Positions 730 through 48,193 of a stretch of DNA of 64,000 nt are shown piece after piece. The number at the start of each line of letters is the position of its first letter. Position 1 is the first letter of the stretch. Made by a program: the position numbers and the translations under genes. The notes beneath the pieces were generated by a model. That model was not told where the DNA came from. It did no database searches and worked only from the letters and a program-made list of their open reading frames with translations. The stretch lies in contig JBODTK010000114.1 in the NCBI GenBank assembly GCA_050613775.1, positions 124,001 to 188,000 on the forward strand, written 5' to 3'. This stretch comes from Neocallimastix sp. 'constans'. Lineage: Eukaryota.

Positions 730-1373
730 TGTAACGGAGGTGCTTCTATTGTAAAGGCGGGATGAGATATAGAAACACAGAAAGGAGAAAACTCAATAGG
801 TTTACACTATCTGTATAAATAATTCGTTTTATTAGAAATATTTTTTATTAATTATAAAATTTAAAATAATTATTAATATTAATCAACAAGGTAATATTTC
901 GAATTACTTATACGTTAATTATTATTAATAAAAGCACGAAGAAAAATATTTTCATTCGTGAAGTTCGCACTATTTATACTTTTAACGGAAAAACAGTTTT
1001 AACATGTAAAAATAATTTTAAAGAAATATTTAGAAATATGTTTGTAATAATTAATAATGTAAAGTTTCTAGAATATAGATTTTAATTGATGAAAATGAAT
1101 CTTATCAAAAAAGAATAAAATAATTTATATAATAAGAATTTCTAAATTCATTTCGGTTGAATTACGAACCGAAAGAATCTTTAACTTTCTATAATTTTAT
1201 ACAGAAAGAATATTCAAGAAGATATTATTAATAATTAATAAAATAATTAATAAAATAATTATTTATGCAAAATGGGTTGAGGTGTGAGTCGAACCCATGA
1301 AGTATTGGTCATGGTCAATGTAACTAACCATTGAACCAAAGTTCTAATTTTACTAACTGAAGATTTCGTTACA
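730..1373 (-). repeat. 3' LTR of element A (644 bp)
   Basis: Near-identical direct repeat of 5992-6618; TG...CA ends; TATAAATA on minus strand at 971-978. Confidence 0.95.
1285..1338 (-). promoter_or_regulatory. Pol III A box/B box (tRNA-like internal promoter) in element A 3' LTR
   Basis: Minus strand TGGTTCAATGG (1338-1328) and GGTTCGACTCA (1295-1285) at tRNA-like spacing. Confidence 0.75.
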
Positions 1374-1705: not shown

Positions 1706-4150
1706 TTAGTTATTATTGTTAAATTCTTTTAAGAGTTTAGGGCAATTTAAGTTTTCTTCGGGTTCCCAAGATGCTTCAGATAAAGGATAGCCTTTCCATT
1801 TAATAAGATATTGGGTTTTGCCATAATGTTTTCTTTTATCAAGAATTTTTTCAACTTCGTATTCTTCTTCATTGTCAATAATTATCGGTGGTGGTGGTTC
1901 TTTCTTTCGTCCAAAGTGATCTTCATAAAATGGTTCAAGTTCAGAAACATGTATTACAGGATGGATTCTGATTTCTTTTGGTAAGTCTAACTTATATGAA
2001 ACGGGAGAAATTTTCTTAATGATTTTATATGGACCAAGTTTTCTAGGTTTAAGTTTTTTATTTCCATTATGAATTATAAGTGAACTATTAATCCACACTT
2101 TATCACCAGGTTCAAAATTTGGAGCTTCAATACGATGTTTGTTTGCAAATTCTTCTTGCTTTTTTCTTGCTTGTTGTAAATTTCCATTAAGTGTTTTAAA
2201 TAATTCTGAAAGGTCTTTTGTAAATTCATCAGCTCTAGGAACATCTGTACTGTTTGGAATTGATGGTGAATATCTTGGATTATATCCATAGTTTGCATAA
2301 AAAGGTGAGTGCTTAATTGATTCTTGAATTGAATTATTATAACTGAATTCTGCTAGGAATAAAAAATTATACCAATCAGAACCTTTAAAGTTTGAATAAC
2401 ATCTTAAGTATTGTTCAATAACGGAGTTCACCCTCTCCGTTAAACCATTGGTTTGGTGATGGAAGGGAGAAGCAAGTTTTGTTGTAATATTGAAGGATTT
2501 ACAAATAGCTGACCAAAATTTTGAAGTGAATTGAGTATCTTTATCGGAAAAAAAATCGGAGGGTGGTTTATGAATACGGAAGAGATCATTTATGGCTTTC
2601 TTGGGAACAAATAAAACAGAAGCAGCAGCTGGAGATTTAGATTTACTAATAAATTTTTTGTCTTCATTTTCTTTAATATATTTCTTTGAAGCTAGAGATT
2701 CTTTTTCAGTTAAGGGGTAGATTGGATCATAATGAAGTTTTTCATTTTGTTTGGGTTTAATCTCGCTATCAAAAGGACAATAAGGAGGTGATTCATTAGT
2801 GTATATTCCACTGAAAGTGTCTATAAATGGAAGTAATTTTTTTGGTAATGATTTGCTTATTTTATTATTGATTTCTTCATTTTCATTTTTGTCATTTTGT
2901 TTAGTAGTATTTAAAGGAACATAAGAAGTAAAGGAATTAGGGTTGATTAAACAATTTTCAACGCAATAATTGGAATTAAATCTTAAGACTTTATTTTTGA
3001 AGTCAATATCAGGATTGTGAGTAGAAATCCATTCGAAACCTAAAATAGCACAATAAGAAGGAAGGTCAACCACATAGAATTGAGTATTACATTTATGGTT
3101 ATTATAAGTGATGGAAATAAGAAGAGTTTTTCCAAGAATAGTTTGCTTTCCAGCAATGCCAGATACCTTAGGGAAATTAGTTTTGGTTGAATACGGGATA
3201 TTATTTTCTTTAACATAGTAAATATCCATTAAATTAATTTGAGAACCAGTATCGAGAAGAATTTTAGCAGTAGAATTTGTATTATCAATACTCAAAGAAA
3301 ATTCGTAAATAGGAAGATTTGAGTCAGAAACTCTAGGTCTAGAAATAGGTTTTGATTCGGGATTAGAAACATAAGTGCTACTTGATGAAGGTTTATTTTT
3401 ATTTTTATATTTATTTTTAAGTGGACAATTGTCGAGAGAATGTTCAGAGGATCCACAATACAAACAAAGATTTTCTCTTCTTCTTCTTTCTTTTTCTTCT
3501 TGAGATAGAGGTCCATGAGGTTTGGATTTAAATTGCTTTTGGAAAAAGAATGATTTTTTGCCTTTTTTATTTTTATTATTAGTACTATTATTTGAATTTT
3601 GACCTTGAAGATTGGAGAATTGTCTATGAGTAGAAATACGATTATCGATTCTAGATGCAATTGTTTGCATAGCAAGGAGGGTTTGAGGTCCAGGAAACAT
3701 TTCTAAAATTCTAGTAGCAATATGGTCATGTAGACCGGCAAGAAAGGCGTCCATCTTGGCTTCTTCATTCCAGGAAGATTCATCGGCGTATTTATTAAAT
3801 TCTAAAATATAATTTCTGACTTCACCAATTCGTTTTTGTTTGATTGTTCTTAATTTCTGGTTCGCAATAAAGGTAGAATCGTAGCTTCCAAATACTGATT
3901 TTAATCTAGCAATGAATTGATTATAATTAAGGAGACAAGGATCTTGGTTTTCAATGAGAGTAGCAGCCCAATTCATGGCGTTTCCATACAAACGAGAAAT
4001 GATATAGATTACTTTAGCTTCATCGTTTGCAAATCTTTCCGGTTGAATCATAAAAATAAGTTCCATTTTAGCTAGAAATCCTTTAAAGAATCGACGATCA
4101 CCAGCAAAACCGTCCTTAAAGGTAGGATTTTCTTGATTATAGTTGTCCAT
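1706..4150 (-). CDS. Gag-protease-(RT/RNase H deleted)-partial integrase-chromodomain fusion ORF of element A
   Basis: Zinc knuckle [14 protein letters not shown]; protease LLDTGS; RT start VLFVPKK joined in frame to integrase core near 2596; GPY motif; chromodomain [10 protein letters not shown]...YLIKWKGY...SWEPEENL; close homolog of 22304-26503. Confidence 0.92.
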
Positions 4151-4873
4151 ATTGAAATAAATAAGGTAGAGTAGAATAAGTTTTCAAAGATAAAGAATAG
4201 GCGGTAGAATCCAGAAGTTCCCAAAGTGGTAGTAGAGATTCCAATAATCCAAAAGGTAGTAGATAGGTAGTAGAGATTCCAAAAGTTCAAAAGTTGTTTA
4301 TTGGTAGGTTTCCAAGGTTAATGGATAAGAACACAAAATTTTAATAACACTTTATAATATTTTATAATTAAATATTTTTATTTTATAATTATTTATCAAA
4401 AATTACTGAAATATAAACTAGATTATATAGTATTGGGCCAACTAAATATATAATCTATCAAAGTTTTATACGATAAGTTCCTTTAGCCTTTTAGTGATAA
4501 CGCAGATAAAATCGATTGTTAATGTCTTATAGACAAAAGGAAGTAATATTGTTAGATTCTTTATTATGTCTAACTTATTGTTAGCTGAAAAGAATAAAAC
4601 AAATTATTTTCCCCTATATCAATAGTATCTGAACACTAAAATGTTACGAAAACAGAGACCAACTTCTGTCGCTTTGGAAGTCGTATAAACCTTATATTTA
4701 TATTTTAATCTTTGTTTTCTTAATTATAAAATTATAATATTAATTATAAAATTATTGATTGATAAAATAGAATAGTACTATTGACTCACAACTATAGAAA
4801 AAAACCGTCAGTACTATTATAACTAGTGCCGCGAGTAAGCACGAAATAAAATTTTAAAATACTATATAATTTT

Positions 4874-5507: not shown

Positions 5508-5991
5508 GTTAAGGTAATGCAAGTTTTATCTTAATAGGGTAGTACAAATTTAAATTGAATTATTTGATCGGGTAGTACAAGAATTTTTGTTATAAGAATT
5601 AATTTCAACAACCATAGGATTAGGATTATCCGGTAATATAATAGATTCAAAGGATTGAATTATATAATAGTGAAGGTAACTCAAAACAGACAAGGTGATA
5701 ATTTGAATAGGAATCAATAGGCAGTAATTATTCGTCTGGGAGGAGATAAAATCCGAGATTAAAAGATATAGAAGTCCGGTATTAAAGAGATAGTAGATAA
5801 GAAGATTTATTCAAAGATTATTAGACTAAGATAGAGAGAACCGGAGTAGGTATTTGTTCTTTAATAGTAGAATAGTAAAAGTAGAAACCCAACGATTGCC
5901 AAAAGATATTGAGAAGGTAGAATTCCTAAAGGTAGAATGTCTGTGGGATAGCGTAAAGGTATTGAGGGCTTGGATTAGCAGGTGCTTTTAT

Positions 5992-6618
5992 TGTAACGGA
6001 GGTGCTTCTATTGTAAAGGCGGGATGAGATATAGAAACACAGAAAGGAGAAAACTCAATAGGTTTACACTATCTGTATAAATAATTCGTTTTATTAGAAA
6101 TATTTTTTATTAATTATAAAATTTAAAATAATTATTAATATTAATCAACAAGGTAATATTTCGAATTACTTATACGTTAATTATTATTAATAAAAGCACG
6201 AAGAAAAATATTTTCATTCGTGAAGTTCGCACTATTTATACTTTTAACGGAAAAACAGTTTTAACATAAAAATAATTTTAAAGAAATATTTAGAAATATG
6301 TTTAAATAATTAATAATGTAAAGTTTCTAGAATATAGATTTTAATTGATGAAAATGAATCTTATCAAAAAAAAATAAAATAATTTATATAATAAGAATTT
6401 CTAAATTCATTTCGGTTAAATTACAAACCGAAAGAATCTTTAACTTTCTATAATTTTATACAGAAAGAATATTCAAGAAGATATTATTAATAATTAATAA
6501 AATAATTAATAAAATAATTATTTATGCAAAATGGGTTGAGGTGTGAGTCGAACCCATGAAGTATTGGTCATGGTCAATGTAACTAACCATTGAACCAAAG
6601 TTCTAATCTTACTAACTG
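5992..6618 (-). repeat. Main part of element A 5' LTR
   Basis: Matches 730-1359; interrupted after ...ACTAACTG by element B. Confidence 0.95.
6544..6597 (-). promoter_or_regulatory. Pol III A box/B box in element A 5' LTR
   Basis: Minus strand TGGTTCAATGG (6597-6587) and GGTTCGACTCA (6554-6544); element B starts 22 bp from the first A-box base. Confidence 0.78.
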
Positions 6619-6829
6619 TGTTACGGAACAAATAAAATAATTAAAATTATATATAATTATTAAAGATTAAAAATTATTAATATTAGTGGAATTAAATAAT
6701 TAATATTAAAATATTAAAATAATTATAAATCTAGTTATAATAAATTAGAAAATGTATTAATTATTATCTTTATTTAATATTGTAATACTTAATAATATTT
6801 TAATAGTTTATTATATTTTATTATTATAT

Positions 6830-12622: not shown

Positions 12623-12934
12623 TGTAACGAATCTTAAAATGTTAAGGTTTTAGAGAATTAAATAAAAATAAAGTAAGGAAACACAAATTTTATTTATTTA
12701 TTTATTATTTTTATTTATTTTATTAATTTTACTTCATGATATTTAAAAATTAGTAGCAAAATTTACAACTATTTATACTTTTTTCAAGGCATAAAAGTTG
12801 TTCTTGCCACTAAATTACATTTTATTTATTTTTTTTTTTATAAAAACTATTAAATTTAAATTGATTTTTATAATTAATTATATAAAATTTAATTATAACA
12901 ATATAAATAAAATACATTTATAATATTAATAAAA

Positions 12935-12977
<43 letters not shown>

Positions 12978-13492
12978 TTATTTATTTAAAAATATCTAAA
13001 ATATTACTAATAAGAATTTATTTAATTGGCTATAATTTTTATTACAATCTGTTAAAATATTCAAATAAAAATAAAAATACTATTCTAATATAAAGGTTTT
13101 TAATAAAATAAAATATTTTTCAATATAAAATAAAACATTTCGATATAAAATTTTATAATAAAAAGTTAAAATATAATATATAAATTTTTAATTATCAATA
13201 TATAAAAATATTATTAATATAAATTTTCATTATTAATATAAAAAAAAATAAGATTTATTATTAATATTGCTAATATAAGTTTTAAATATATAAAAATATT
13301 ACTTTTAATATAAGATTTAATATAAAAATATAAAGTTTAATATAATTTTTGATTTAATTTTTGATCTTTGGATTTAAAAATTTATTAAAGTACAAAAATA
13401 ATAATGTACACATAATGTATTAGAAATAAATCGTAGATTTAATTAAGAATGCATTATTTAGTACATTCTTATCAAGATGCCCCGACGAAGAC

Positions 13493-16400
13493 TCAAGCTT
13501 CTCTGTAAGCGGAGTTAAACTTTACTAAATTTTTAAAGTGAACATTCCTATCGAGTTGCTTTCCAGTCTTCTGATCGATTAGGGTTGCCGTGTTGAATTG
13601 AATTTTTAAAATTTTAAATGGTCCATTGTAATATGGTTCTAGCTTAGTGCGGCTAAAGTTTCTAACAAGAACAAGATCACCAGCCTTTAATTCTTTTCCC
13701 TTTTTCATACTTATTTGTTCTTCTCGTCTTGTTGCCCAATACTTGTTAGCATTCTTCACATTTTCGCATGCTTCTCTAGTCCATTGATAATGACGAACAA
13801 ATTTTTCCATTAAAATTTCATCATATGATTTACCTGCATTTTCAATTGTTCTTATGGCTATATCATAAGGCTGTTGGTCTTCTCTTCCATATACTAATTC
13901 AAAACTAGAATGTCCAGTAGCTGTATTTTTGGTAGTTCGAAGTGCCCATAAAGCAGAAGGTAAAACTTCATCCCAATCTTGATTTTTCCTTCCTAATAAA
14001 CGAAGTAATTTTCCAATTTCTTTATTTCGATTTTCAGTAAGGCCATTTGATTCAGGGTGGTAAGTAGCTACAAATTTAACATATACATCATAAAGATCAA
14101 GAAAGATTTTAGTCATATCAGAAGTGAATTGGACTCCATTATCAGTAGTAATAACTTGAGGGACACCATGTCTTGCAAAAACGTTTATTAAAAATTTAAT
14201 TATATCAGAGGAAGTTATGTTTTCAGTGGGTTCGGCTTCAACCCATTTGGTAAAGTAATCAACAGTTACTATAATATATTGATTATTATTTCTTGTTTTT
14301 GGTAACGGTCCTATAATATCTAATCCTAAATGCACAAAGGGACCCTCCACTTTAGTTGGATGGTTTTCGGTTGGTTCTGGATATGGTTGAGGACGATTTA
14401 ACTGGCATTTTTCACAATTACTAACAATTCTTTTGATATCTTTAATCATATGATTCCAATAAAAGTTTTTCTTAAGTCTTTGATATGTTTTGTAATATCC
14501 TTCGTGGCCAATATTATGAGCTTCTAAAATTAATTTAAACCTTTCATTTTCGTCCGTTATTAATTTTCTATAATTTCCATTGTCGATAAAGTAATCTTCA
14601 CCATCAATAACAGTAAACTTTTCATTAATAAATTCCTTTATAACTTTAGATAATAATTCTTCATTATTTCCATTAGTAATTTTTGTTAATAATATCTTTC
14701 TCTCTTCCTTACTTTTCATTCTTGAAAGAGCATCAGCTAACACATTCTTTTTGCCTGATTCATATTTTATATTAATTCCAAGCATACTAGCGGTTAGACA
14801 CCATCTTGTTTGCCTTGCATTCAAAGGTTCTTTATTCTTAAATAAACCAACTAATGGTTTATGATCTGTGTAAATAGTTGTAGGTAGTGGATTTCCTTCA
14901 ATATAAGATTTAAATTTAGTCATACAGTAAAACAAAGCGGTTCCTTCCAAATCGGTAATACCATAATTCTTTTCAGCTTTCTTTAAACTTCTACTTATAA
15001 AGTGTATTGGATGCTCCTTACCGGTTTCTTCTTCTTTTTGTAAAAGAACTCCACCAATTCCATTATACGAAGCATCAGTTCTAATGATAAAAGGTTTGTC
15101 AAATGACGGAAATTTTAGAATAGGCGCATTGATTAATTTTTCTTTTAGGAGTTCAAAGCTTTCTTGTTGTTCTTTATTCCATTCATATTTAGTATTCTTT
15201 TTCAATAATTTACATAAAGGTGAGGTAATTTGAGCATATTTAGGGATAAAGTCACGATAATACCCTATTGCTCCTAGAAATGATCTTAATTCATGAATTG
15301 ATGAAGGGGCTTCCCACTTCTTAATAGCTGTTATTTTACTTTCCATGGGACTTAATCCTTTAGTAGTAAGTTTGTGACCTAATACATCAACTTCAGTTTG
15401 AAGAAAATGGCACTTTTCAATATTAATTTTTAATTTGTTTTCTTTAAATACTTCTAATACTTGTTTAATATGAATTAAATGTTCTTCGATACTTTTTGAA
15501 TAGATCAAAACATCATCAATAAATACGTAAACAAATTCACCAATAAAAGGGAATAAAATTTTATTCATTTCTCTTTGGAAGGTTGAGGGAGCTCCAGTAA
15601 GTCCAAAAGGCATAACCTTAAATTGATAATTTCCAAACTTAGTAGTGAAAGTGGTTACTTCAACGCTTTCTTCATCCATTAAGATTTGGTGAAAACCAGA
15701 AAATAAATCAAGAGTTGTAAATATTTTAGCTCCTCCGAGACTATCAAAAATTTCATCTATATATGGAACTGAATAAGAATCTTTTTCTGTCATATCATTG
15801 ACTTTTCGGTAGTCAATGCACAAGCGCCACTTTCCATTGTGTTTTAGAATAAGTACTACTGGAGATGACCATTCTGAACAGGATGGTTCTATCAATCCTT
15901 TCTTAATAAGTTTTGTAAGTTCTTCTTTTAAGATATCTGATTTTAATTTAGTTAACCTATAACTTCTTAATTTTACTGGCTTTGCATTTGCTTTTAAACG
16001 GATCTTATGTGGTGAAAGTTTAGAAGGAGTTAGTTCTTCTGTTGAAGTGGCAACTATGTCAATCATTTCTTTGAGAATTTTAATAATTTGTTCTTTATAA
16101 TCTTTATTTAAGGTACTTAAAAATTCATCACTCTCAATAAATTCCATTGGAGTTAATTCCTTTATAATTTCCTTTTCATTATTCGTTTCTTTAACTTTTC
16201 TAATAGTGCAAATTATACTTTCTTCATCATAATATTGATTATTTATTTTAGCTATTTCTTCGTATTCACTTTCTGACAAAAGTTTACATAAACTGTTTAA
16301 GGTCGGATGAATAAATAAACAATGATCGATTTGAGTTTTAAAGTTTATTAACATATCATAAAAAGAGTCTTCTTTCTCAATAATTCTAAAGTCCGCATTA

Positions 16401-17497
16401 AATTCATAATTATTAATTTTTACTGGTAATCGAACAATAATTCCTTCCGAGTATTCTTCATCTTGTGTTGCTAGTTGGATTCTTCCACGACTTTTTCCAA
16501 CTGTTTCATATTCACCAGGTAATTTATCAAAATACTGCTTAGTAACGATGCTTAGGTTACTACAAGAATCAATTAAAAGTTTTCCTAGTACTCCGTCAAC
16601 ACTTGCATCAACCATTGCTAAGTCTTCTTCGGCTACTTCATTACTTTTACTTATGTAGCTATGATCATAGTTATTTACTAATAAAGTTCGTGCTATTACA
16701 TTGTCTACAGTCCCAATTATTTTAGACTTTTCTAACTTTAAACCTTGAGTTAATTGTGAACGAATTTTCGGACATGCATTCAAGAGTTGACCTATCGTAA
16801 TACTGGATTTAAGATTATTTAAATCATCCATAATATTGTAAGGTTCTTTATTATTCATCATTTTAATATTCCTTTTTACTAACTGAGTATTTCCATTATT
16901 AGTTTCTTTAGTTTTTGTTGAAATTAATTTTTCCAAAGTATTAGTTTTATTTTGTTGATTATCTTTATTCATTTCTAGATCTTCTATTTCATTATCGATT
17001 ACGAGTATATCTTCAGATTCAACTTTTTCCTTTCCTTTTGATGAATAATTGTTGTTTTCTTCTTTACTTTCTCTTACTCTTGTTATTTTTCTTAATTCCT
17101 TTTCTTTTTGTTTTTCTTTGTTAATATTTGGTTGAGTTAAAATTGAAGGAAGTATTTGATTTTTATAAACTTTATTTGGTTTATTATGTAGCTCATTTTC
17201 TTTCTTCTTTCTTAAAGCAGGAGTTGCGAAAGGACGTGGATTATCTTTTAAACTTTTATGTACTTTCTTGGAATTATTTTCTTCTTTTTCGCTGTTATTA
17301 TCATTCATTTTTCTTTTTATAGCATTTATAATGATATCATCCTCACTTTCAGTTGTGTCACTAAAATCAGATTCTTCAGATTCTTCATTAAAGGAATTAT
17401 TATCAATTGGAGTATTCTTAGTAAAAGTATTATTTTGTAAATTATTTAATGAAGCTATTGTTTTGTCATTGGGAGTGCTTCTGCTCCCATTTAGAAG
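13493..17497 (-). CDS. pol: Pol of element C (protease, RT, RNase H, integrase), reached by -1 frameshift
   Basis: LIDSCS, WRLCIDYRKVN, FIDD, RTDAS, HHCC finger, LDIIGP..TDNG..E core, GPF motif; slippery TTTAAAC at 17503-17497 plus hairpin 17488-17471. Confidence 0.93.
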   Translation of the reverse strand, partial: LLNGSRSTPNDKTIASLNNLQNNTFTKNTPIDNNSFNEESEESDFSDTTESEDDIIINAIKRKMNDNNSEKEENNSKKVHKSLKDNPRPFATPALRKKKENELHNKPNKVYKNQILPSILTQPNINKEKQKEKELRKITRVRESKEENNNYSSKGKEKVESEDILVIDNEIEDLEMNKDNQQNKTNTLEKLISTKTKETNNGNTQLVKRNIKMMNNKEPYNIMDDLNNLKSSITIGQLLNACPKIRSQLTQGLKLEKSKIIGTVDNVIARTLLVNNYDHSYISKSNEVAEEDLAMVDASVDGVLGKLLIDSCSNLSIVTKQYFDKLPGEYETVGKSRGRIQLATQDEEYSEGIIVRLPVKINNYEFNADFRIIEKEDSFYDMLINFKTQIDHCLFIHPTLNSLCKLLSESEYEEIAKINNQYYDEESIICTIRKVKETNNEKEIIKELTPMEFIESDEFLSTLNKDYKEQIIKILKEMIDIVATSTEELTPSKLSPHKIRLKANAKPVKLRSYRLTKLKSDILKEELTKLIKKGLIEPSCSEWSSPVVLILKHNGKWRLCIDYRKVNDMTEKDSYSVPYIDEIFDSLGGAKIFTTLDLFSGFHQILMDEESVEVTTFTTKFGNYQFKVMPFGLTGAPSTFQREMNKILFPFIGEFVYVFIDDVLIYSKSIEEHLIHIKQVLEVFKENKLKINIEKCHFLQTEVDVLGHKLTTKGLSPMESKITAIKKWEAPSSIHELRSFLGAIGYYRDFIPKYAQITSPLCKLLKKNTKYEWNKEQQESFELLKEKLINAPILKFPSFDKPFIIRTDASYNGIGGVLLQKEEETGKEHPIHFISRSLKKAEKNYGITDLEGTALFYCMTKFKSYIEGNPLPTTIYTDHKPLVGLFKNKEPLNARQTRWCLTASMLGINIKYESGKKNVLADALSRMKSKEERKILLTKITNGNNEELLSKVIKEFINEKFTVIDGEDYFIDNGNYRKLITDENERFKLILEAHNIGHEGYYKTYQRLKKNFYWNHMIKDIKRIVSNCEKCQLNRPQPYPEPTENHPTKVEGPFVHLGLDIIGPLPKTRNNNQYIIVTVDYFTKWVEAEPTENITSSDIIKFLINVFARHGVPQVITTDNGVQFTSDMTKIFLDLYDVYVKFVATYHPESNGLTENRNKEIGKLLRLLGRKNQDWDEVLPSALWALRTTKNTATGHSSFELVYGREDQQPYDIAIRTIENAGKSYDEILMEKFVRHYQWTREACENVKNANKYWATRREEQISMKKGKELKAGDLVLVRNFSRTKLEPYYNGPFKILKIQFNTATLIDQKTGKQLDRNVHFKNLVKFNSAYREA

Positions 17498-18402
17498 TTT
17501 AAAGACTTTTTGGAATATATTTCTTTTTTATTTTTTTCCATAATCTTATTTAATTGAGGGCAATAGTATGAGTAATGACCTTCTTCCTTACAGAAGAAGC
17601 AAGTTTTAACAGATAAATTTCTCATTTTCTGGGTTGATTCTTCTATAATATCTTGAGGTTTCAGTTTATTATTTGTTTGACTTGTTTGGAAAGTTTCGTT
17701 TCTTCTTTTAGGATAAAGTCTTGAAGTAGTACTGTTTTGATTATTTTGATTATGCTGGGAATTATTAACATTATAGGTATTAATATTATTGTTCCTTACA
17801 GAAAGTCTATCTACTTTCTCGGCAATTTTGAAAGCTTTCTCCATACTTATATCATCTTTAAGGGATAATTTCTTCCAGGCTTCATAATTATTTTGAATAG
17901 AATCAATATAATCTAGTACACCAATGCGCTTTCTTCTCTTTTTATCAAGTTTAGTGTACAAAGTTCTATATCTTACATTAAAGTCTTTAATCTTTTCGTT
18001 TCTTTTAATTCGCATTGCACGAAGTTCTTTAAGAAGTAAATTTTGGTCTTCTTTAATACCGTAAAAATTTTCAAGACTTGAAATAATTTTTCCAAGAGAA
18101 GGAAATTTAATATCATCATCAACATTTTCTTCTTCATCATCTTCTTCTTCTTCATCTGATGAATCATCACTTTCATCATCACTATCTTCTCCCAAATCTT
18201 CAATAACGCGTTGTACTTCACCAGAGCTGGTAAGTAAACAAGCATTAAATATTGTTTCTGGATCTGTAATACCTTGTATCTTGATCCAAAGTTTTAATTC
18301 AGTAGCCCAGGACTTAATATCTAAATTGTCCTTGCTAAGTTTCAAAATATCTCTTAATTCTTTTTTCAATTCTTTAAAGCTCAAAGTTGTTTCCTTGGAC
18401 AT
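17491..18402 (-). CDS. gag: Gag of element C
   Basis: Zinc knuckle CFFCKEEGHYSYYC; similar to B Gag (IKDFNVRYR versus IKNFNWRYK); acidic D/E tract. Confidence 0.9.
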   Translation of the reverse strand: MSKETTLSFKELKKELRDILKLSKDNLDIKSWATELKLWIKIQGITDPETIFNACLLTSSGEVQRVIEDLGEDSDDESDDSSDEEEEDDEEENVDDDIKFPSLGKIISSLENFYGIKEDQNLLLKELRAMRIKRNEKIKDFNVRYRTLYTKLDKKRRKRIGVLDYIDSIQNNYEAWKKLSLKDDISMEKAFKIAEKVDRLSVRNNNINTYNVNNSQHNQNNQNSTTSRLYPKRRNETFQTSQTNNKLKPQDIIEESTQKMRNLSVKTCFFCKEEGHYSYYCPQLNKIMEKNKKEIYSKKSLNF

Positions 18403-18560
18403 TTTGTCTAAATATGAGGTGATTAAATACGAATAAATTTGGGAAATCCAACTTTCAAAATATAATTTAATAGGTAATTTAATATCGAATCAATTTTTAA
18501 AACAATATATTTTAGTAACTTTTGAAAATAATAATTTTATTTGCTTTCTTTAGTAGATAT

Positions 18561-18870
18561 AAGCTCGAAATCCTTATCGACAACTTAGTAGAAATTATAA
18601 AGCACGAGGTTCTTTTCGACTACTTTATTAAGAATAATTTTTAAGTTCGAAATCTATATCGACAACTTAATAGAATAATTTTTAAGTTCGAAATCTTTAT
18701 CGACAACTCAATAGAATAATTTTAAGTTCGAAATCTTTATCGACAACTTAATTGAATAATTTTAAGTTCGAAATCTTTATCGACAACTCAATAGAATAAT
18801 TTTAAGTTCGAAATCTTTATCGACAACTTAATAGAATATTTTTCAAGCTCGAAATCTTTATCGACCACTT
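18561..18870. repeat. About 40-bp tandem repeat (7-8 copies) in element C 5' UTR
   Basis: Unit AAGTTCGAAATCTTTATCGACAACT(T/C)AATAGAATAATTTT. Confidence 0.9.
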
Positions 18871-19450
18871 GAATTTTGTAATTTAGTATATTTGTAGTAA
18901 TAAATTTAGAAGCAAAGTTTTATTTATTATTTTCATCTTTCAAAAAATTTTTCTTTTTAAACGATAAATATTGTATTATTATAGCTAATAAAATTATTAA
19001 TTAATTATAATTATTAAATACAAAAAATAATCTTTATTGTCGTACAATCTGATAGTACACACTGTCTGACGTGCAGCTTACCTAATGGTGTCATGCCACG
19101 CGTGTGCCACGATTACTATATTCAATATAAAATATAGCAGTTCAGAGCCCACTAGCCCAATTACTATGTAGGATAAACTTAATCCGATAATCTATGTACG
19201 GAATAAAAATAAATTTTAAAAGTATTCAATAATATTTTTATTAACTAATAAAAATTAACTAAAAACACAATATTTTCAAAGTAAATTAAGATTCTTTTAC
19301 AGGAATTATTAAACAAATAAAGTATCAGTAATAAAAAAAAAATAAAAAAAATTTAAATGGCGAAGTTAGCCAAAGTCTGATACTTTATATAATAAAGTGC
19401 CTTATAACTAGCACAAAGAAAAGTAAAAAAAATATATATATAAAAAAAAC

Positions 19451-19680
19451 AATCTTACGCCTTCGGTGACGTAAGCTCCTTATTCGCCAGTGCTTGGAAA
19501 GTACCCGCACCTTCGTGTGTTGAAACGTTGAAGGCTGAACTATTATTACCGGGTCGGTAACCAAATACCTTCGTCTACTTTCCAATTAATCTCCAAATTA
19601 ACTACTATTCAATAACCTACTATGAATAGAGTTAATTTGTTGCTATCTGAGAATACACTGTGTATGAGCTCTATCCGCTC
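19451..19680 (-). ncRNA. Structured 5' UTR motif in element C
   Basis: Sense GAGCTCATACACAGTGT ... GCACTGGCGAATAAGGAGC-TTACGTCACCGAAGGCGTAAG; internal stem TTGGAAAGTA/TACTTTCCAA. Confidence 0.65.
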
Positions 19681-19870
19681 CTTGTTATAATTTTACAAAA
19701 TTTGTTTTTTTAGAATCTTAATTTTACTTATTTAAAAAAAATTTTTTTTATATATATATCAAACAAGCGCCATAGGTTAATCAAAGGATTAACGACTTAC
19801 TTGTTTATCAATATAAAATAAAAAAAAATTAAAAAAAAATCTATGTTATTTACTATTATTTCTATTTAAT

Positions 19871-19888
19871 TCCCCGATATCTCCACCA
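19871..19888 (-). promoter_or_regulatory. tRNA primer-binding site of element C (probably tRNA-Ala)
   Basis: Minus strand TGGTGGAGATATCGGGGA, 6 nt from the LTR; complement ...TCTCCA-CCA resembles tRNA-Ala 3' ends. Confidence 0.8.
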
Positions 19889-20189
19889 TATAAATGTTAA
19901 GGTTTTAGAGAATTAAATAAAAATAAAGTAAGGAAACACAAATTTTATTTATTTATTTATTATTTTTATTTATTTTATTAATTTTACTTCATGATATTTA
20001 AAAATTAGTAGCAAAATTTACAACTATTTATACTTTTTTCAAGGCATAAAAGTTGTTCTTGCCACTAAATTACATTTTATTTATTTTTTTTTTTATAAAA
20101 ACTATTAAATTTAAATTGATTTTTATAATTAATTATATAAAATTTAATTATAACAATATAAATAAAATACATTTATAATATTAATAAAA

Positions 20190-20231
<42 letters not shown>

Positions 20232-20750
20232 TTATTTATTTAAAAATATCTAAAATATTACTAATAAGAATTTATTTAATTGGCTATAATTTTTATTACA
20301 ATCTGTTAAAATATTCAAATAAAAATAAAAATACTATTCTAATATAAAGGTTTTTAATAAAATAAAATATTTTTCAATATAAAATAAAACATTTCGATAT
20401 AAAATTTTATAATAAAAAGTTAAAATATAATATATAAATTTTTAATTATCAATATATAAAAATATTATTAATATAAATTTTCATTATTAATATAAAAAAA
20501 AATAAGATTTATTATTAATATTGCTAATATAAGTTTTAAATATATAAAAATATTACTTTTAATATAAGATTTAATATAAAAATATAAAGTTTAATATAAT
20601 TTTTGATTTAATTTTTGATCTTTGGATTTAAAAATTTATTAAAGTACAAAAATAATAATGTACACATAATGTATTAGAAATAAATCGTAGATTTAATTAA
20701 GAATGCATTATTTAGTACATTCTTATCAAAAAAATTAGAAATTAGAATGC

Positions 20751-20804
20751 TGGCATAGTGGTTAGTCACTATGACCTCAGCCTGAACCACTAGGGTTCGA
20801 CTCA
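20751..20804 (+). promoter_or_regulatory. Pol III A box/B box in element D 5' LTR
   Basis: TGGCATAGTGG (20751-20761) fits TRGCNNAGYGG; GGTTCGACTCA (20794-20804); T-run follows; element C ends 23 bp before the A box. Confidence 0.82.
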
Positions 20805-21363
20805 CACCTTTACTAAAATTTTATATCATTTAAATTTTAAAAGAATTTTTATACTTCATTTCTGTATTTGTTTCTGTATTTGTTTCTGTATAAATTTCTG
20901 TAAAAAATTAACAAAAGAAATTCTTAGAAATTAATAGAAACAAATCAGATAGAAATTCTATTTTAATTTATCTTTTATCATTATTTCTTTTAGATTCTTT
21001 TTAACCGAAAATAATCAATTTTTATGAAACTTTTTAATGATTTTATGGTTTTAAATTTTTATGGATTTAAATTTTGAAAAACTATAAATAGGAGTGAATT
21101 TCGCAGCCAAAAGATTTTAAATATTGTGTTTTTATTAATTATTAAATTAATTAATAAGTAATTCGAAATATTACAATAATTAATCTTTATAATTAATATT
21201 TTTAAATTTCTTAATTAATAAAACTATATTTTAAAAAACCAAATTACTTATTAATCAAAAAGTGCTTACCTATTGTGTTACACTCTTTAAAACACGGATA
21301 TTCCAATATTCGTTACAATAAAAACACCACTAAACTAAGCACAATACCTTTGCACTTTTACTC

Positions 21364-21730
21364 TTTTTGGAACCCCGTTAAGGAATCCCATTTTCTACTA
21401 CTATTTTTGGAACCCCGTTAAGGAATCCCATTTTCTACTACTATTTTTGGAACCCCGTTAAGGAATCCCATTTTCTACTACTATTTTTGGAACCCCGTTA
21501 AGGAATCCCATTTTCTACTACTATTTTTGGAACCCCGTTAAGGAATCCCATTTTCTACTACTATTTTTGGAACACCGTTAAGGAATCCCATTTACTACTA
21601 TTCTTTTTTGGAACCCCGTTAAGGAATCCCATTCTCTACTACTCTTTTTGGAACCCCGTTAAGTAATCCCATTCTCTATTACTCTTTTTGGAACCCCGTT
21701 AAGGAATCCCATTTTCTACTATTTTTGAAA
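21364..21730 (+). repeat. 40-bp tandem repeat (about 9 copies) in element D 5' UTR
   Basis: Unit TTTTTGGAACCCCGTTAAGGAATCCCATTTTCTACTACTA. Confidence 0.93.
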
Positions 21731-22282
21731 CCACTTACCAAGACTATAAATTTCTCTACCAAAATTCATGCACGAATTTATAAATTCAATCGGAACCCTT
21801 GAATTTTACTATATATTAAAATTATTAATATTTTCAATAATCCATATAACCATCCTTGAAATTAAAATTATTTATATTGAAATTAAATATTTACTTCTTC
21901 TAATAATTAATTATATTGTATATTTATTATTCAATCAAAATTAATGATTATAATAACTAAAAAAAAAAAAAAAAAAAAAAAAAATTAGTAATAATTAATA
22001 TTTAATAATTAATATTTAATAATTAATAATAATAATTAATAATCAATAATTAGTAATAATTAATAGTAATAATCAATATTCAATAATTAGTAATAATTAA
22101 TAGTAATAATCAATATTCAATAATTAGTAATAATTAATAGTAATAATCAATATTCAATAATTAGTAATAATTAATAATAATAATTAATAATAATTAGTAA
22201 TAATCAATATTTAATAATTAATAATAATTAATAATAATTAATAATTAATAATTAATAATTAGTAATCAATAATTAGAATTAA

Positions 22283-26503
<4,221 letters not shown>

Positions 26504-26571
26504 ATATAAATCATTTAATCAAAAATAAATTTTATTTCATCAAAGTACTATTAATCATTCTAACTTATGAT

Positions 26572-26602
<31 letters not shown>

Positions 26603-26825
26603 TTATTTTATATTATTCAAAAACATTTATTCTAAGATAGTTTTATTTTTATACTTTATTTTTAAAACTTAAAATTCATGTAATTTTTATTATCCAATGT
26701 ATTAATTAAATTATCACTCCTATAAGTATTTTAGTTATAGTTTATTATTATAAAAGTTAGAATTAGAAATAGTTTAGATTTAAAGCAAAAGATTCGTCTG
26801 GCATCCGAATCCTAGAGGAGGACCA

Positions 26826-27427
26826 TGTAACGAATCTTAAAAAATTAGAAATTAGAATGCTGGCATAGTGGTTAGTCACTATGACCTCAGCCTGAACCAC
26901 TAGGGTTCGACTCACACCTTTACTAAAATTTTATATCATTTAAATTTTAAAAGAATTTTTATACTTCATTTCTGTATTTGTTTCTGTATTTGTTTCTGTA
27001 TAAATTTCTGTAAAAAATTAACAAAAGAAATTCTTAGAAATTAATAGAAACAAATCAGATAGAAATTCTATTTTAATTTATCTTTTATCATTATTTCTTT
27101 TAGATTCTTTTTAACCGAAAATAATCAATTTTTATGAAACTTTTTAATGATTTTATGGTTTTAAATTTTTATGGATTTAAATTTTGAAAAACTATAAATA
27201 GGAGTGAATTTCGCAGCCAAAAGATTTTAAATATTGTGTTTTTATTAATTATTAAATTAATTAATAAGTAATTCGAAATATTACAATAATTAATCTTTAT
27301 AATTAATATTTTTAAATTTCTTAATTAATAAAACTATATTTTAAAAAACCAAATTACTTATTAATCAAAAAGTGCTTACCTATTGTGTTACACTCTTTAA
27401 AACACGGATATTCCAATATTCGTTACA
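26826..27427 (+). repeat. 3' LTR of element D (602 bp), with A box 26861-26871 and B box 26904-26914
   Basis: Matches 12623-12639 + 20729-21317. Confidence 0.95.
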
Positions 27428-29677: not shown

Positions 29678-31263
29678 TGTCAAAGTTTTAAGATAATTTG
29701 GTCTTAACGATTAGGTCAAGATGCCAAATTATAGTAATTAATTACTAATTTAATTTTATTCTTATTTAATACATATTGTTATTAGTAAATTTTATAATTT
29801 AATTTTTATTTAAAATATAAATTTTATTTAATCTTAATAATATTTTATTACATTATTATTTTATATAATTATTACTATAATTTAAATTACAATAATCCTA
29901 CAAAGGATTAATCAAAAGAATTTAAACATGTATTTATATAAAATAATTAATTATTAAAATATTAATTATTAATATGAATATGTAAATAATATTAATATAA
30001 GTTTGATATTGATAATATAAAATTAGATAATAATATAAATATTTAATATAAATAAAATATAAGAATCAAATATTGCTAAATATTATAATTTATAATTAAA
30101 ATATAATATGTAGAAATTAATTTAATATGACAATCACGTGTTTACATTATTTAATATATATTAAATTCAATATGTTAATAATATTTAGTAATTAGTTGGC
30201 CTAGACTAATTCCTAAATATTTTAATAAAGTTAATTTAATAATAATTATTATATTATTATTATTTATTAATATTGAAATTCAAATAACTGAATTATCGAA
30301 ATTGAAATTGAATTGAAATTCAGTTATTATCTTAACAATGCCCTTCCACAAAAATCGGATTCCAGACGATTTGTGTAACATTGTTAAAAAAAATTTTGTT
30401 AAGTTATTAAAAAAAATTTTTAATTTTTTAAAGTTAATTAGGAATTAAAAGGTCACTTGAATCTTTAGGAGAAGACCTTTTAAGTGACAATTTCATGAAA
30501 TTTGAAATTTGTCAAAATTTGTTAAAATTAAAATTTTATTATAAAATTCAATGTTTTTAAATATGATGGTACCAACATTATTATATATTTCCTTGTAAAA
30601 TTTTGAAATTGAAATTTTGAAATTTAATTGAAATTAACATTTCAATTTTTACCATTAACTTTGAAATTATTGAAAATTTTAAAAATATACTAAATAATAA
30701 ATATATAAAAATATAAAATTACTATTAAATAGTTGAATATTTGATTTTTATTAAATTTTGAAATTTCGTAATGTCGAAATTTGAAATTTTAAAATTTTTA
30801 ATTTTTAATTTTCTAAATTCTGAAATTGTAATTGAAAATTTTATCAATTTAATTATTGAATATATTTTATCAATATAATTTATTGAATATATTATAATAT
30901 TCAATTTAAAATATTATTAATCTTGATAATTATGAAAGCGTCCTTATCATAATTATCATTTTATCATCAAAGAATATTATAGAGAAAAGCGTCCTTTTCA
31001 ATATAATATTAAGCAAATTTTAATTAATCTATTAAATTTCAAATATTGAATCAATTTAGAATGCTCCTCCTTCCTTCTTTCATATTATTATTTTTCTATG
31101 ATTAATTCAGAAATTTAAAATTTAATAAGTTTAATGTAATTTTGCTATTTATAAATTTATAACTGATGTTTAAAAGTAAATTATTATTGCAATTCAATCG
31201 AAGAGAATATTTATTTATTTGTTTAAAATATAGAATTGATTGATTTTATGTAATAGAAATTTA

Positions 31264-31294
<31 letters not shown>

Positions 31295-33114
31295 AATATT
31301 TAAAATTTAAATTATAAAATTGTATATATTAGTATATAACATTTTTGGAATTTTAACGATTGTTTTAAGAAATATAATTTTGTTTATTTTTTGAATAATT
31401 TGTAATTATTACTTTTGTAATACAGTATTTAAAATGAATAAATTTTACTTAAACTTTTAATATAGAAATTAAAAATTGACTTTAATAAACGATATAATGT
31501 TTGATTAAATTGTAAAAATATTTTAATAAAAAGCGAGACATGAGGATTATAAGAGTAGTACAGTGCAGTATAAGTAGTTTAATGAATAAATTAATTATTA
31601 TTTATTGAAATTCATATGTTATATAGTTCTTATTCCCATGATAGGGAGGAGAGAAGTCTGATTCATGTGAATTTACCTTTATCTTTGTTTCTTTGAACTT
31701 TTGAATAACTTTTTGTATAACTGGGGTGTTAATTACTGTAACTGATACTCTTTTATGAATTTTTTCATTGTTGTTTGAAGTGTGGGATGTAGGTTTTGGT
31801 TTGGTTCTTCGTTTAGGCTTTCTTCTTAAGGTTAGTTTAGTTTCTACTTTTGCTTCCATGTTAGTTATCCTTTTATTGTTATTATCGTTATTGTTATTAT
31901 CGTTATTGTTATTATCATTATTGTTATTGATTAGATGATTATCACACTGATATGGGTTTTCAATATTTTCTTTTTTGTTATGGCTAACTTCAGCTTTTTT
32001 GTATAAGCTTATATCGTGAATTTTATCATCAGCATTATTCTTCATTTCATTAATACCTTCTTTTTGTTTCGTACATGATTTTGGTTCTATATAATTTAAG
32101 GACCTATTAACTTGGACAAGGAATAAGGAACTTCTTCTACGTAATTGTTCCAATAAATTAATTTGATTTATAATGTCCTGACAAGTTTTACTTTCTAAAG
32201 AATTTTCTTCCTTCAACTGTTTTACTTTTGATTTAAGGACGTGAATAAGTTTTTGAATTCTTATTAATTCGTCCAATCGATCATGAAGTTCTTTCTCAGC
32301 CTTACCAATAAACCTGTTATATTCACTAATGGGAATCATATCTTCTTTATCCTTCATTGGGTTAGATATATCATTTCTTTTAAATGATATATCTGAAGTA
32401 ATTTTTATAACTTTAGGCATCTTAAGGTAATCGATAGATTGTTGGTAGGATTATTGTTAAAGTTTTAAGATAATTTGGTCTTAACGATTAGGTCAAGATG
32501 CCAAATTATAGTAATTAATTACTAATTTAATTTTATTCTTATTTAATACATATTGTTATTAGTAAATTTTATAATTTAATTTTTATTTAAAATATAAATT
32601 TTATTTAATCTTAATAATATTTTATTACATTATTATTTTATATAATTATTACTATAATTTAAATTACAATAATCCTACAAAGGATTAATCAAAAGAATTT
32701 AAACATGTATTTATATAAAATAATTAATTATTAAAATATTAATTATTAATATGAATATGTAAATAATATTAATATAAGTTTGATATTGATAATATAAAAT
32801 TAGATAATAATATAAATATTTAATATAAATAAAATATAAGAATCAAATATTGCTAAATATTATAATTTATAATTAAAATATAATATGTAGAAATTAATTT
32901 AATATGACAATCACGTGTTTACATTATTTAATATATATTAAATTCAATATGTTAATAATATTTAGTAATTAGTTGGCCTAGACTAATTCCTAAATATTTT
33001 AATAAAGTTAATTTAATAATAATTATTATATTATTATTATTTATTAATATTGAAATTCAAATAACTGAATTATCGAAATTGAAATTGAATTGAAATTCAG
33101 TTATTATCTTAACA
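29678..33114 (-). mobile_element. Element G: 3.4-kb non-autonomous LTR element related to H
   Basis: 660-bp LTRs 29678-30337 and 32455-33114; 5-bp TSD ATAAA at 29673-29677 and 33115-33119; PPT GGAAGGG on minus; no pol. Confidence 0.94.
31602..32420 (-). CDS. Orphan 272-aa protein (N-terminal coiled coil, Asn-rich and basic C-terminus) at the gag position of element G
   Basis: Intact ATG ORF starting 35 nt inside the 5' LTR boundary, sense to the element; no capsid, knuckle or pol motif recognised. Confidence 0.7.
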   Translation of the reverse strand: MPKVIKITSDISFKRNDISNPMKDKEDMIPISEYNRFIGKAEKELHDRLDELIRIQKLIHVLKSKVKQLKEENSLESKTCQDIINQINLLEQLRRRSSLFLVQVNRSLNYIEPKSCTKQKEGINEMKNNADDKIHDISLYKKAEVSHNKKENIENPYQCDNHLINNNNDNNNNDNNNNDNNNKRITNMEAKVETKLTLRRKPKRRTKPKPTSHTSNNNEKIHKRVSVTVINTPVIQKVIQKFKETKIKVNSHESDFSPPYHGNKNYITYEFQ

Positions 33115-38156: not shown

Positions 38157-39411
38157 AGAGATTTTCACAAAAATCTTTTCTAAAGGGAGCAATGTAAGAA
38201 ATATAGAAATATTTTCTATATTTCTTAGTCTAAATATAAATTTTATTAATTACAAATTAATCTAAATATAAATTTTATTAATTAAAAAATTAAAATACGT
38301 AAGTATAATAATATTAAATATTAAAAAATAATAATAGAATTTTCACAAATACAATTATGTTTAAAATTTAAAATTCTTCTAAATAATTTCCACAATAATA
38401 TTAAATAATAAATAAATTAAAATTAATATTTAATATTCTAAAATTATTTTCACAATAATATTAAATAATAATTAAATTAAATTAAATAATAAATTTCTTT
38501 GAAATAATTCGTTCTAATTTAATACAATTAAGAAAATCTTCAGGTTTTTCTGCTAGTCTTTTCCTGAAGATACAACAGCTGACTAGCAAACAATAGCTTA
38601 ATTAAGAAATAATTAATATATTATATTAAATAATTATTAATTAAATAAACACATGAAAAATAAATAATAATAATTAATTAATTAAACAGACACATGATAA
38701 AAAAAAAATAATAATAATAAATAAATATAAAATAAGATTAATTAATAAATAAAAAAGTATAAAATAACGATTGATTTCTGTTTTTTCAGAGATCAAGAGT
38801 TATTATTATTAAAAATATTAATAAAGATAAATATTAAAAATAATAATAACCTAAAATTTAAAGTTTAAAATTTTTTTTAATAAAATTTTGTGTTTTAAAA
38901 ACTTATTTTTATATACGAGTCTTCTACTTTTTCTAATTTTCGTCTATTTAAATATAAGTATTTTTCTTTATTTTTTTTTTAATAATAAACTCAATCAATA
39001 TAAAAAATAAACTCTTATAAAAAATTTCTTTTTATTAGAGTTTCTTACATGAAGATTTCGTTACAGTAATTAAAATAAATTTATATTGATAACGAAAATT
39101 TTAATAACTAATTAAATAGATTTGATTATTTTCAATATAACATAATACAAAAGAAATATAATATTAATATATTAAGTGGGCAAGGACAATATTCTTGGCT
39201 AAAGATTTTTAATACATTATATGGAATCGGATCAATAATTCAAAAAGGAATTATAAGTTAATTGGTGATTTATTAACTTAAGATTTCTATTTAGTAATAT
39301 TTGAAGAATATTGGAAAGTTCCAATTATATAGAATAGAATAATCTATAAGGTTAGAATAATTTATATTATTCTAGCACAATTAGTATTATTTATTCATTC
39401 TGTATTAAAAT

Positions 39412-43100: not shown

Positions 43101-43766
43101 GAAAACAAAATCACCAATGAAAGGAAAAAGAATTTTGTTCATCTCACGTTGGAAAGTTGCTGGAGCGTTAGTAAGTCCGAAAGGCATGACTTTGAATTGA
43201 TAATTTCCGAATTTTGTGGTAAAACTGGTAACTTCAACGCTTTCTTCATCCATAAGTATTTGATGATATCCGGAGTAAAGGTCCATTGTAGTAAATATTA
43301 TAGCACCATCTAAACTATCGAATATTTCATCAATATTTGGAAGAGAATATGAATCTTTTATAGTAGCATCATTGACTTTTCTATAGTCAACACACATTCT
43401 CCATTTACCATTTGGTTTAGGAACAAGAACAACAGGCGAAGACCATTCTGAGTATGATGGTTCAATAAGTCTTTTATTTATTAATTTGGTAAGTTCTTCT
43501 TTAAGAATATCTGTTTTAAGTTTTGAGATTCTATAAAATTTTTGTTTAATTGGCCTAACACCAGGTTTAAGGTGAATTTTATGTGGAGATAAGTTCGAAG
43601 GTGTTAATTCTTCAGAAGAGGTCGCAATTATAACTATATTATCTTCTAAAAGTTTAATTATTTGATCTCGATACTTTTTATTAAGAGTATTGATAAATTT
43701 TTCGTTATGAATATATTCTCGAGGAGGAAGACCTTCCATTTTCTTAAGTTCTTTCTTAATAGATTC
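40133..43766 (-). mobile_element. Element F: 5'-truncated relative of C (3' LTR 40133-41049 plus pol)
   Basis: LTR TGTTGAGG...CCTTAACA; PPT region nearly the same as C (AGATGCCC..AAGACTCAAGC); gag and protease missing. Confidence 0.88.
41073..43739 (-). pseudogene. pol: RT-RNase H-integrase part of element F pol
   Basis: [20 protein letters not shown], integrase core; strongly similar to C pol; 5' end lost. Confidence 0.9.
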
Positions 43767-43780
43767 ATTAAGAAAGAACT

Positions 43781-45433: not shown

Positions 45434-45445
45434 GGGCCGACGAAT

Positions 45446-46167: not shown

Positions 46168-46235
46168 AACTTGATACATCTATTATCACTTTTGAAGTAA
46201 TAACTTCAAATTAAGATAATAGAAACGTTTGTCAA

Positions 46236-48155: not shown

Positions 48156-48187
<32 letters not shown>

Positions 48188-48193
<6 letters not shown>

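Follow-up and report, generated by a model that had tools for sequence, protein, structure and literature searches.

A tRNA-gene-like insertion target within the long terminal repeats of Neocallimastix chromoviruses

The nest and its A/B-box cassettes

The window, by which we mean the whole 64,000-nt stretch of DNA that was analysed, is an AT-rich pile of nested Ty3/gypsy LTR retrotransposons. A single true tRNA gene lies among them and serves as an internal control. The elements are arranged as follows.

730-39065, minus strand: element A, a chromovirus; TSD GTAAT
730-1373, minus strand: 3′ LTR of A, unbroken; A box at 1328-1338, B box at 1286-1295
1706-4183, minus strand: ORF of A, with gag, protease region, integrase C terminus, SH3 and chromodomain
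5992-6618, minus strand: main piece of the 5′ LTR of A (LTR nt 15 to end)
39050-39065, minus strand: outer piece of the 5′ LTR of A (F TSD plus LTR nt 1-11; the A TSD GTAAT is next)
6619-29622, plus strand: element B, a non-chromoviral gypsy element splitting the 5′ LTR of A; TSD ACTG
12623-27427, plus strand: element D, an intact chromovirus in the pol of B; TSD TTTAT
12640-20728, minus strand: element C, a relative of B, within the 5′ LTR of D; TSD AAAA
29630-39049, plus strand: element F, a self-priming gypsy element with no chromodomain, splitting the 5′ LTR of A; TSD TGAAG
29678-33114, minus strand: element E, a non-autonomous relative of G, within the 5′ LTR of F; TSD ATAAA
45446-46234, plus strand: LTR of family I (B/C clade)
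46236-54329, plus strand: F-like solo LTR, split by G
46882-54281, minus strand: element G, with a diverged chromodomain-like tail
54336-55161, minus strand: solo C LTR; TSD CAAA
55177-55269, plus strand: tRNA-Ile gene (anticodon UAU, with an intron)

The TSDs of A, B, C, D, E and F agree on both sides, which rules out an assembly artefact as the source of the nest; those of the F-like solo LTR differ at 2 of 5 nt. Pfam places a chromodomain at the C terminus of both A and D, after the SH3 domain. The gag-PR-RT-RH-IN order with a C-terminal chromodomain is complete in D, which has a 1406-aa frame at 22283-26503 and two identical LTRs. The 825-aa ORF of A is short of RT and RNase H by deletion, and A is a non-autonomous deletion derivative. 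In a quick tree B, C, I and J group together (100% support) and F and G sit on separate long branches, closer to the chromoviruses, so that at least three lineages are represented among the inserted elements. E and G have in common the 3′ internal region, the start of the LTR and the position of R. The tail on the G integrase (48188-48400, at the end of the G ORF) is not called by Pfam, and downstream of the tRNA gene a small element, H, with LTRs of 182 nt (55996-57275) lies in an AAT microsatellite.

The LTRs of A and D each contain an A box and a B box.

6587-6597, minus strand: A box of the 5′ LTR of A (T8 at 6597, LTR nt 36)
6545-6554, minus strand: B box of the 5′ LTR of A (G53 at 6553)
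6528-6531, minus strand: first T4 run past this B box, a possible weak Pol III terminator
20751-20803, plus strand: A box (20751-20761) and B box (20794-20803) of the 5′ LTR of D
26861-26913, plus strand: A and B boxes of the 3′ LTR of D, unbroken

A sequence-only reading had placed minus-strand boxes at 6597 and 6554 with 44 nt from T8 to G53, as in D; these positions are correct, and both D LTRs agree. Four A+B box pairs occur in the window, all within A or D LTRs, against 0.04 expected per 64 kb from 100 Markov resamples (the intron-bearing tRNA, with a spacing of 65, falls outside this pair test). The cassette has the A- and B-box consensus of a type 2 Pol III promoter at tRNA-like spacing. 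Pairing in the A cassette reaches 3 of 5 positions in the T-stem, 1 of 7 in the acceptor and 1 of 4 in the D-stem, against 5/5 (T-stem) and 7/7 (acceptor) in tRNA-Ile, in keeping with the earlier statement that the T-arm cannot pair. Cassettes of 11 elements behave alike (T-stem 2-4/5, acceptor 1-5/7, D-stem 0-2/4), and they do not form a cloverleaf. ARAGORN and Rfam call tRNA-Ile as the sole tRNA in the window and leave the LTR cassettes uncalled; over the 11 metagenome loci described below, Rfam gave no credible family and three sub-threshold matches. A functional tRNA at the LTR cassette was rejected for want of a cloverleaf and of any ARAGORN or Rfam tRNA call.

Two earlier statements needed revision. 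The sequence between the boxes had been described as diverged, but within the A/D clade its mean identity is 0.74, against 0.65 for the downstream U3, and it is able to base-pair with the boxes. The A locus had also been called an independent replicate of D; the insertion events are indeed independent, but the boxes are homologous. As the A and D LTRs are homologous, only the insertions count as independent replicates.

Conservation and folding of the cassette

Relatives were collected by a box-blind metagenome scan with a motif upstream of the PPT. It returned 48 matches, from which 11 AT-rich LTR starts were kept and 37 were discarded for a GC content of 36% or more. Nine of the 37, inspected by eye, were chance-like, and tblastn found gypsy homology in only one discarded match, L031, which was used as an outgroup. 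One locus, L035, is D's own family. The B box is exact in 9 of the 11 LTR starts and carries one mismatch in L003 and L013. In 7 of the 11, T8 at nt 35-36 and a spacing of 43-45 go together with an A box that has no more than one mismatch. Departures take several forms: L018 has a two-mismatch A box at a spacing of 44, in L003 the cassette is displaced by 17 nt and C56 is gone, in L013 the spacing is shorter and the A box decayed, and L044 retains the B box only.

Eight elements (A, D, L005, L021, L023, L027, L009 and L014) share the A box T-R-G-Y-N-Y-R-N-T-G-G and the B box G-G-T-T-C-G-A-N-N-C; variation in this set is confined to consensus N positions, with T8 at nt 35-36 and spacings of 43-45. 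When the distant L009 and L014 are compared with A, D and L005, the boxes are 64-91% identical and the flanks 20-60%. The sequence-only reading had proposed weighing the boxes against the rest of U3, and in six A/D-clade families the B box is clearly the more conserved (identity 0.93, against 0.65 in the downstream U3). The corresponding values are 0.77 for the A box, 0.74 for the spacer and 1.00 for the TATA box; within the A/D clade the A box by itself exceeds background only moderately. The B box provides the top-ranked 10-nt windows among 127 in U3. GC is 0.42-0.52 in the cassette vs 0.15-0.18, the decayed L003 being the exception. Conservation of the consensus with no cloverleaf supports the earlier suggestion that boxes and spacing are kept as a promoter or TFIIIC-type site, not as a tRNA.

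The B box is absent from the window LTRs of B, C, E, F, G, I, H and the F-like solo LTR (0/8), and was found downstream of none of eight outgroup integrases, one of them nearly uninformative. In a quick tree the protein-coding elements with boxes fall into one clade, to which L044 is sister (100%), and L018 is more distant. A protein scan and two DNA patterns yielded no loci in viral contigs. A scan of genome contigs yielded 11 loci, one of them in the clade (L049) and ending before its LTR; the L049 genome, searched with the D LTR, gave 13 short AT-rich matches and nothing else. Permissive LTR blastn was swamped by AT-rich noise. The raw RNA run X22 contained almost nothing of the element, with 11 poor reads, none of them across the boxes, too few to bear on transcription.

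Some further observations concern the relatives themselves. L009, L013 and L014 are short LTR elements, apparently non-coding, whose termini are of the A/D type and which carry the cassette along with signals for self-priming; they are probably TRIM-like passengers of the clade; the internal parts of L013 and L014 measure about 0.7-0.9 kb, and the L014 LTRs exceed 400 nt. A 15-nt motif ~17 nt upstream of the 3′ LTR (1369-1405, 26794-26830 and 30333-30369, and in L031) is common to A, D, E, the short elements and the GC-rich outgroup chromovirus. Loci L049-L057 are eukaryotic retrotransposon contigs that contaminate several bacterial and archaeal genome records.

The boxes might instead be kept for a transcript, if selection acted on a short Pol III RNA of about 85-110 nt, folded into two hairpins and made from U3 in the manner of foamy-virus LTR cassettes, for example a decoy for host RNA silencing, with targeting as its by-product. 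Single folds place the A box in hairpin 1 and the B box in hairpin 2 in D, L005, L021, L023, L027, L003 and the sequence-unrelated L018, with z from -1.4 to -3.7; A has hairpin 1 only. When arms are swapped, the native arms of hairpin 1 fold better (32 of 5040 permutations are as low, a figure that is not a true P value because the hairpin sequences are related). A T4 run lies 4-23 nt past the B box in 9 of 10 elements, and a T5 run that near in 6 of 10, T runs being common by background in this AT-rich DNA. Hairpin 2, however, has no arm specificity (960/5040) and is missing in A. L009, L013 and L014 are unstructured (z -0.97, +1.75 and -0.16), with perfect boxes in L009 and L014, while L003 keeps its hairpins with the B box lost. 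Covariation in fixed columns is not above shuffles (61/500), 2 of 16 pairs have double changes and the RNAalifold covariation term is +1.23; this lack of significance is partly due to the pairing register, which slips between families, and a claim of proven RNA covariation was rejected. Fold energies range from -9.9 to -24.6 kcal/mol in 10 of 11 elements, with -36.8 in L018 alone, and stems of about 15 bp or less are short for Dicer. Template-switch repair of quasi-palindromes could, moreover, yield the same arm pattern with no selection. We regard an RNA product, the chief rival of the reading favoured below, as unlikely to be what is selected. A loose end at 1317 in run X5 is a further family variant of the A-box hairpin region, and its altered 3′ arm could still pair.

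Insertion offsets and the separate TATA and self-priming unit

We express offsets as the number of bases between the near end of an element and T8, with later insertions removed. Element B begins at 6619, points its 5′ end at the A box and has a 4-bp TSD (ACTG), as first described, and the reported gap of 22 bp corresponds to 21 intervening nt, or 22 by coordinate difference. Beyond B the 5′ LTR of A resumes, and two further insertions, F and E, are found there. Relative to T8 of A, the offsets are 21 nt for B, 24 for F and 72 for E, and C lies 22 nt from T8 of D. Relative to T8 of the true tRNA, they are 22 nt for the solo C LTR, 24 for the F-like solo LTR and 72 for G. The geometry said to be common to C at D and the solo LTR at tRNA-Ile is thereby borne out, with an offset of 22 in both. 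The tRNA side of this comparison is one tRNA gene (C, F-like and G), and B itself is found only at the LTR box.

Counted from +1 of the mature tRNA, or from the position that corresponds to it, the upstream distance is 14-17 nt for B, C, I and F and 65 nt for E and G. In the F LTR, E stands 48 nt in from the 5′ end, whereas G lies close to the 3′ end of the F-like LTR; the common value of 72 therefore does not reflect a shared target sequence, and an exact match at 72 in an LTR of 700-850 nt has a calculated chance of about 1 in 700. The offsets of 24 and 72 hold only if B and the solo C LTR came last, an order that is assumed. LTR substitutions number 5/641 in A, 6/874 in F, 5/1091 in B, 1/660 in E, 0/834 in C and 0/602 in D, and the G LTRs are identical; the difference between E and B has P of about 0.2 if they are of the same age, and LTR divergence is compatible with that order of arrival but does not establish it.

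Public runs X4 and X5, recorded as feces metagenomes, were also used; this source fits a host among the anaerobic gut fungi, as does a 72%-identical protein labelled Orpsp1 (Orpinomyces sp.). In X4 an A-family LTR runs into the 5′ end of family I after 1360 (28 of 30 nt match from 45450), and this junction is 22 nt from T8 of the A-family LTR, or 23 if gapped. Contig breaks occur at 1360/1331 in both X4 and X5. The loose ends examined were the best-supported ones, which gives at least one junction, and a second read search added no further clear junction in its 17 best-supported loose ends. None of the 11 metagenome LTR starts has a clean insertion 21-24 nt from T8; they were located through the PPT and are therefore 3′ or collapsed LTRs. 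Insertion counts are small: apart from the window, a single junction in a single run contributes to them. The earlier proposal that targeting is clade-wide goes further than these counts allow; the boxes extend across the clade, but insertions are seen only at A and D in the window and at the one A-family junction in X4.

Some neighbouring structures are of separate note. A truncated C-like element, J, meets the pol of family I head-on (41027-46235), and the family I LTR abuts the F-like solo LTR; from this contact, a fourth element may once have lain ~20 nt from T8 of the tRNA. Two cases misfit the offsets. A 377-nt insert in the 5′ LTR of G (53686-54062), about 290 nt from the tRNA, has 7-bp inverted ends like C/I LTR starts and a 4-bp TSD, and is probably a solo LTR or MITE. 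The other, L018:1-260, is a rearranged boxed LTR copy with an LTR-like end 10 nt from a putative T8 and the B box lost. A G-like pol adjoining in L023 was excluded as a targeting case, as no G LTR is present at the junction.

The four A/D LTR copies contain three insertions, every one of them at LTR nt 12-15 of about 600; a post hoc calculation puts the chance of this at about 4e-5. All three are in 5′ LTRs, upstream of the boxes and with the promoter spared, and both 3′ LTRs are clean. Such a pattern would suit a cassette selected as a decoy landing pad, one that draws tRNA-targeting elements to a harmless edge for the benefit of the chromovirus or the host. The 3′ LTR, however, offers the same site, and an insertion there would disrupt U3; that 2 of 2 targeted LTRs are 5′ is expected one time in four, and surviving copies are a filtered sample. 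Selection as a landing pad is distinctly improbable.

Insertions could also follow the LTR terminus, the local AT-rich sequence or chance, with the boxes irrelevant. Because the distance between T8 and the LTR start does not vary, the two reference points are confounded within A and D, and insertion events are few. Yet the same lineages recur at the same three offsets at the true tRNA, which has no chromovirus terminus, and E lies beyond the start of F at exactly the distance of G. We find this account very unlikely, and a tRNA-gene-like target inside the chromovirus LTR is well supported as a real feature; its purpose is an inference.

Intron-less class I tRNAs have a box spacing of 43-45. 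The same spacing in the LTRs, together with the decayed versions in L003, L013 and L044, might point to a neutral relic of a captured tRNA gene or of a tRNA-derived SINE head, bound by TFIIIC through inertia. The consensus positions are nevertheless invariant though flanks are 20-60% alike and polyproteins about 70-75% identical, and neutrality is highly improbable.

Downstream of the cassette lies a separate unit.

6232-6240, minus strand: TATA box of the 5′ LTR of A, identical in aligned families; putative Pol II promoter
6190-6199, minus strand: 10-nt self-priming segment complementary to the PBS; putative 5′ end of the genomic RNA
5982-5991, minus strand: PBS of A, complementary to its own LTR, with no TGG

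In 9 of 10 elements the PBS can pair over 10-11 nt with a segment of the element's own LTR (the L013 LTR is cut short). This segment follows a TATA-like site by 38-50 nt, and six different matched pairs occur. Self-priming sites with matched changes are seen at 5982-5991, 6190-6199 and 21318-21327 and in L003, L005, L009, L014, L018, L023 and L027, and F, E and G appear to be self-priming likewise. A and D are probably primed by Tf1/Tj1-type self-priming, a mechanism taken from PMC4600332, and the genomic RNA would then start 209-357 nt downstream of the B box. Because this start lies far downstream and T4-T5 runs occur within 4-60 nt of the B box, the cassette is not the genomic promoter; it is located in U3, apart from the putative Pol II promoter. 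Boxes serving as the genomic RNA promoter, as proposed for Helenus (a pattern described in PMC10886601) and shown for Cassandra, would suit the same kind of box in an LTR and its presence in the short non-coding L009, L013 and L014, but the T runs, the RNA 5′ end that self-priming needs behind the TATA box and the 1406 aa encoded by D make this the least probable explanation of all.

A putative chromatin barrier and its known counterparts

The reading that we favour, with some reserve, is that TFIIIC and TFIIIB come together on the first 100 nt of the A/D LTR, where they probably form a chromatin barrier, and that other integrases read this assembly as a tRNA gene. TFIIIC would bind the boxes and set TFIIIB over the outer edge of the LTR, with a start expected near LTR nt 14-17. 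Box conservation and the Ty3-like offsets make such binding very probable. The integrases of B/C/I, F and E/G would likely take the Pol III-factor complex for a tRNA gene, and targeting is, in all likelihood, a by-product of that complex. The chromodomain is predicted to steer the element into H3K9-methylated nests, and D indeed lies inside B. A tDNA-type barrier at the outer boundary could then shield the Pol II promoter, which is the weakest step; by analogy with tDNAs, a barrier or open-chromatin role comes out slightly ahead of an even chance as the selected function, the insulator activity suggested earlier being likewise an inference. Two features of the data count against it: the boxes are dispensable in some relatives (L003, L013 and L044), and both can lie in hairpins, for which a DNA barrier has no need.

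Each new chromovirus copy would plant two fresh targets within transposon nests. An insertion at nt 12-15 of the 5′ LTR spares the promoter and the genomic RNA and so would cost the chromovirus little. Retrotransposition restores the outer end of the 5′ LTR from the 3′ LTR, and an insertion that severs only the outer 11-14 nt is tolerated, as these are rebuilt. Whether such a boundary-element tRNA mimic makes every chromovirus copy a target for at least three independent tRNA-targeting lineages, and thus a mobile safe harbour, is an evenly balanced proposition. If it does, nests would be built by feed-forward and tRNA targeting would be freed from host tRNA genes. The model would also suggest how chromoviruses stay expressible after integration into heterochromatin, explain ordered nesting without recourse to chance, and add the anaerobic gut fungi, with offsets of three classes, to the organisms in which tRNA genes are targeted.

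The ingredients are known singly, as tRNA-like boxes in TRIM LTRs, foamy-virus Pol III cassettes in U3, tRNA targeting and tDNA barriers. Apparently new is their combination, in which a protein-coding clade has a conserved A+B cassette, fixed in U3, that other retrotransposons use as a tRNA gene. This combination was not found in the portions consulted of the literature on gut-fungus LTR elements, chromovirus or Pol III LTR boxes, tRNA targeting and tDNA barriers.

Among TRIMs, the cassette resembles the fungal, tRNA-derived Helenus, in which A and B boxes are conserved in the LTR with no functional tRNA (PMC10886601). Cassandra and Ajax are 5S-derived TRIMs, and the term 'TRIMp3' is that of Kojima 2024 (PMC10886601). 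Unlike A and D, Helenus is non-autonomous, 311-1263 bp long and tRNA-primed, with a Pol III genomic RNA proposed (PMC10886601). Here the boxes occur in protein-coding chromoviruses (D being intact) and in short relatives, upstream of a TATA/self-priming unit; the LTR boxes of Helenus/TRIMp3 are thus present, and the size under about 1.3 kb and tRNA-primed PBS are not. Kojima expects autonomous partners not to share such LTRs, and mentions that 'not a few' Repbase LTRs hold tRNA-like pieces, which are not followed up there (PMC10886601). The strings 'Neocallimast' and 'nested' have 0 occurrences in the text of PMC10886601.

The foamy viruses SFVagm and BFV likewise have an A/B-box unit in the U3 of an autonomous LTR element, apart from the Pol II promoter and with a two-hairpin fold; they also have a T-run terminator, to which the T runs past the A/D B box may correspond (PMC3993851, PMC6950176). 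Their cassettes are long-stem dumbbells of 111-128 nt that are processed to miRNAs (PMC3993851, PMC6950176). The A/D cassette, known here from sequence alone, differs from this dumbbell in that its stems are short and not universal; it matches in its U3 location and has no conserved 111-128-nt two-hairpin precursor of about -30 kcal/mol. No tRNA-type targeting of the foamy cassette is described in the parts of PMC3993851 and PMC6950176 cited here.

In their position just upstream of +1, B, C, I and F resemble Ty3, Tj1, DGLT-A, Tca8 and Tyl6 (PMC5911963, PMC6673722, PMC4600332, PMC5006619). DGLT-A inserts on average 15 bp from its target and Ty3 within 20 bp (PMC5006619, PMC6673722), and Ty3 reaches Pol III start sites via TFIIIB (PMC6673722, PMC5911963). 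F is self-priming like Tj1, and the chromodomain-like tail of G recalls Skipper-2. Unlike the tRNA-targeting gypsy elements listed in these sources, those described here have the LTR of another retrotransposon among their targets, and B and C have a TSD of 4 bp; the 65-nt upstream offset of E and G is not listed there for Ty3, Tj1, DGLT-A, Tca8 or Tyl6.

Chromodomains direct integration to H3K9me (PMC4600332), and tDNAs are heterochromatin barriers that need TFIIIC and Pol III, as at the S. pombe cen1 tDNA-Ala (PMC2040200). The tDNA barriers are host genes with tested activity (PMC2040200), whereas the A/D cassette is transposon-borne and its barrier role putative. TRE5-A inserts at non-tRNA A/B-box loci of Dictyostelium rDNA (PMC5391098) and Ty3 at the relic gene ZOD1 (PMC5911963). 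As in these two cases, a tRNA-targeting element here would report a Pol III complex at tRNA-less A and B boxes; the TRE5-A and ZOD1 targets are host loci, whereas the target described here is itself mobile.
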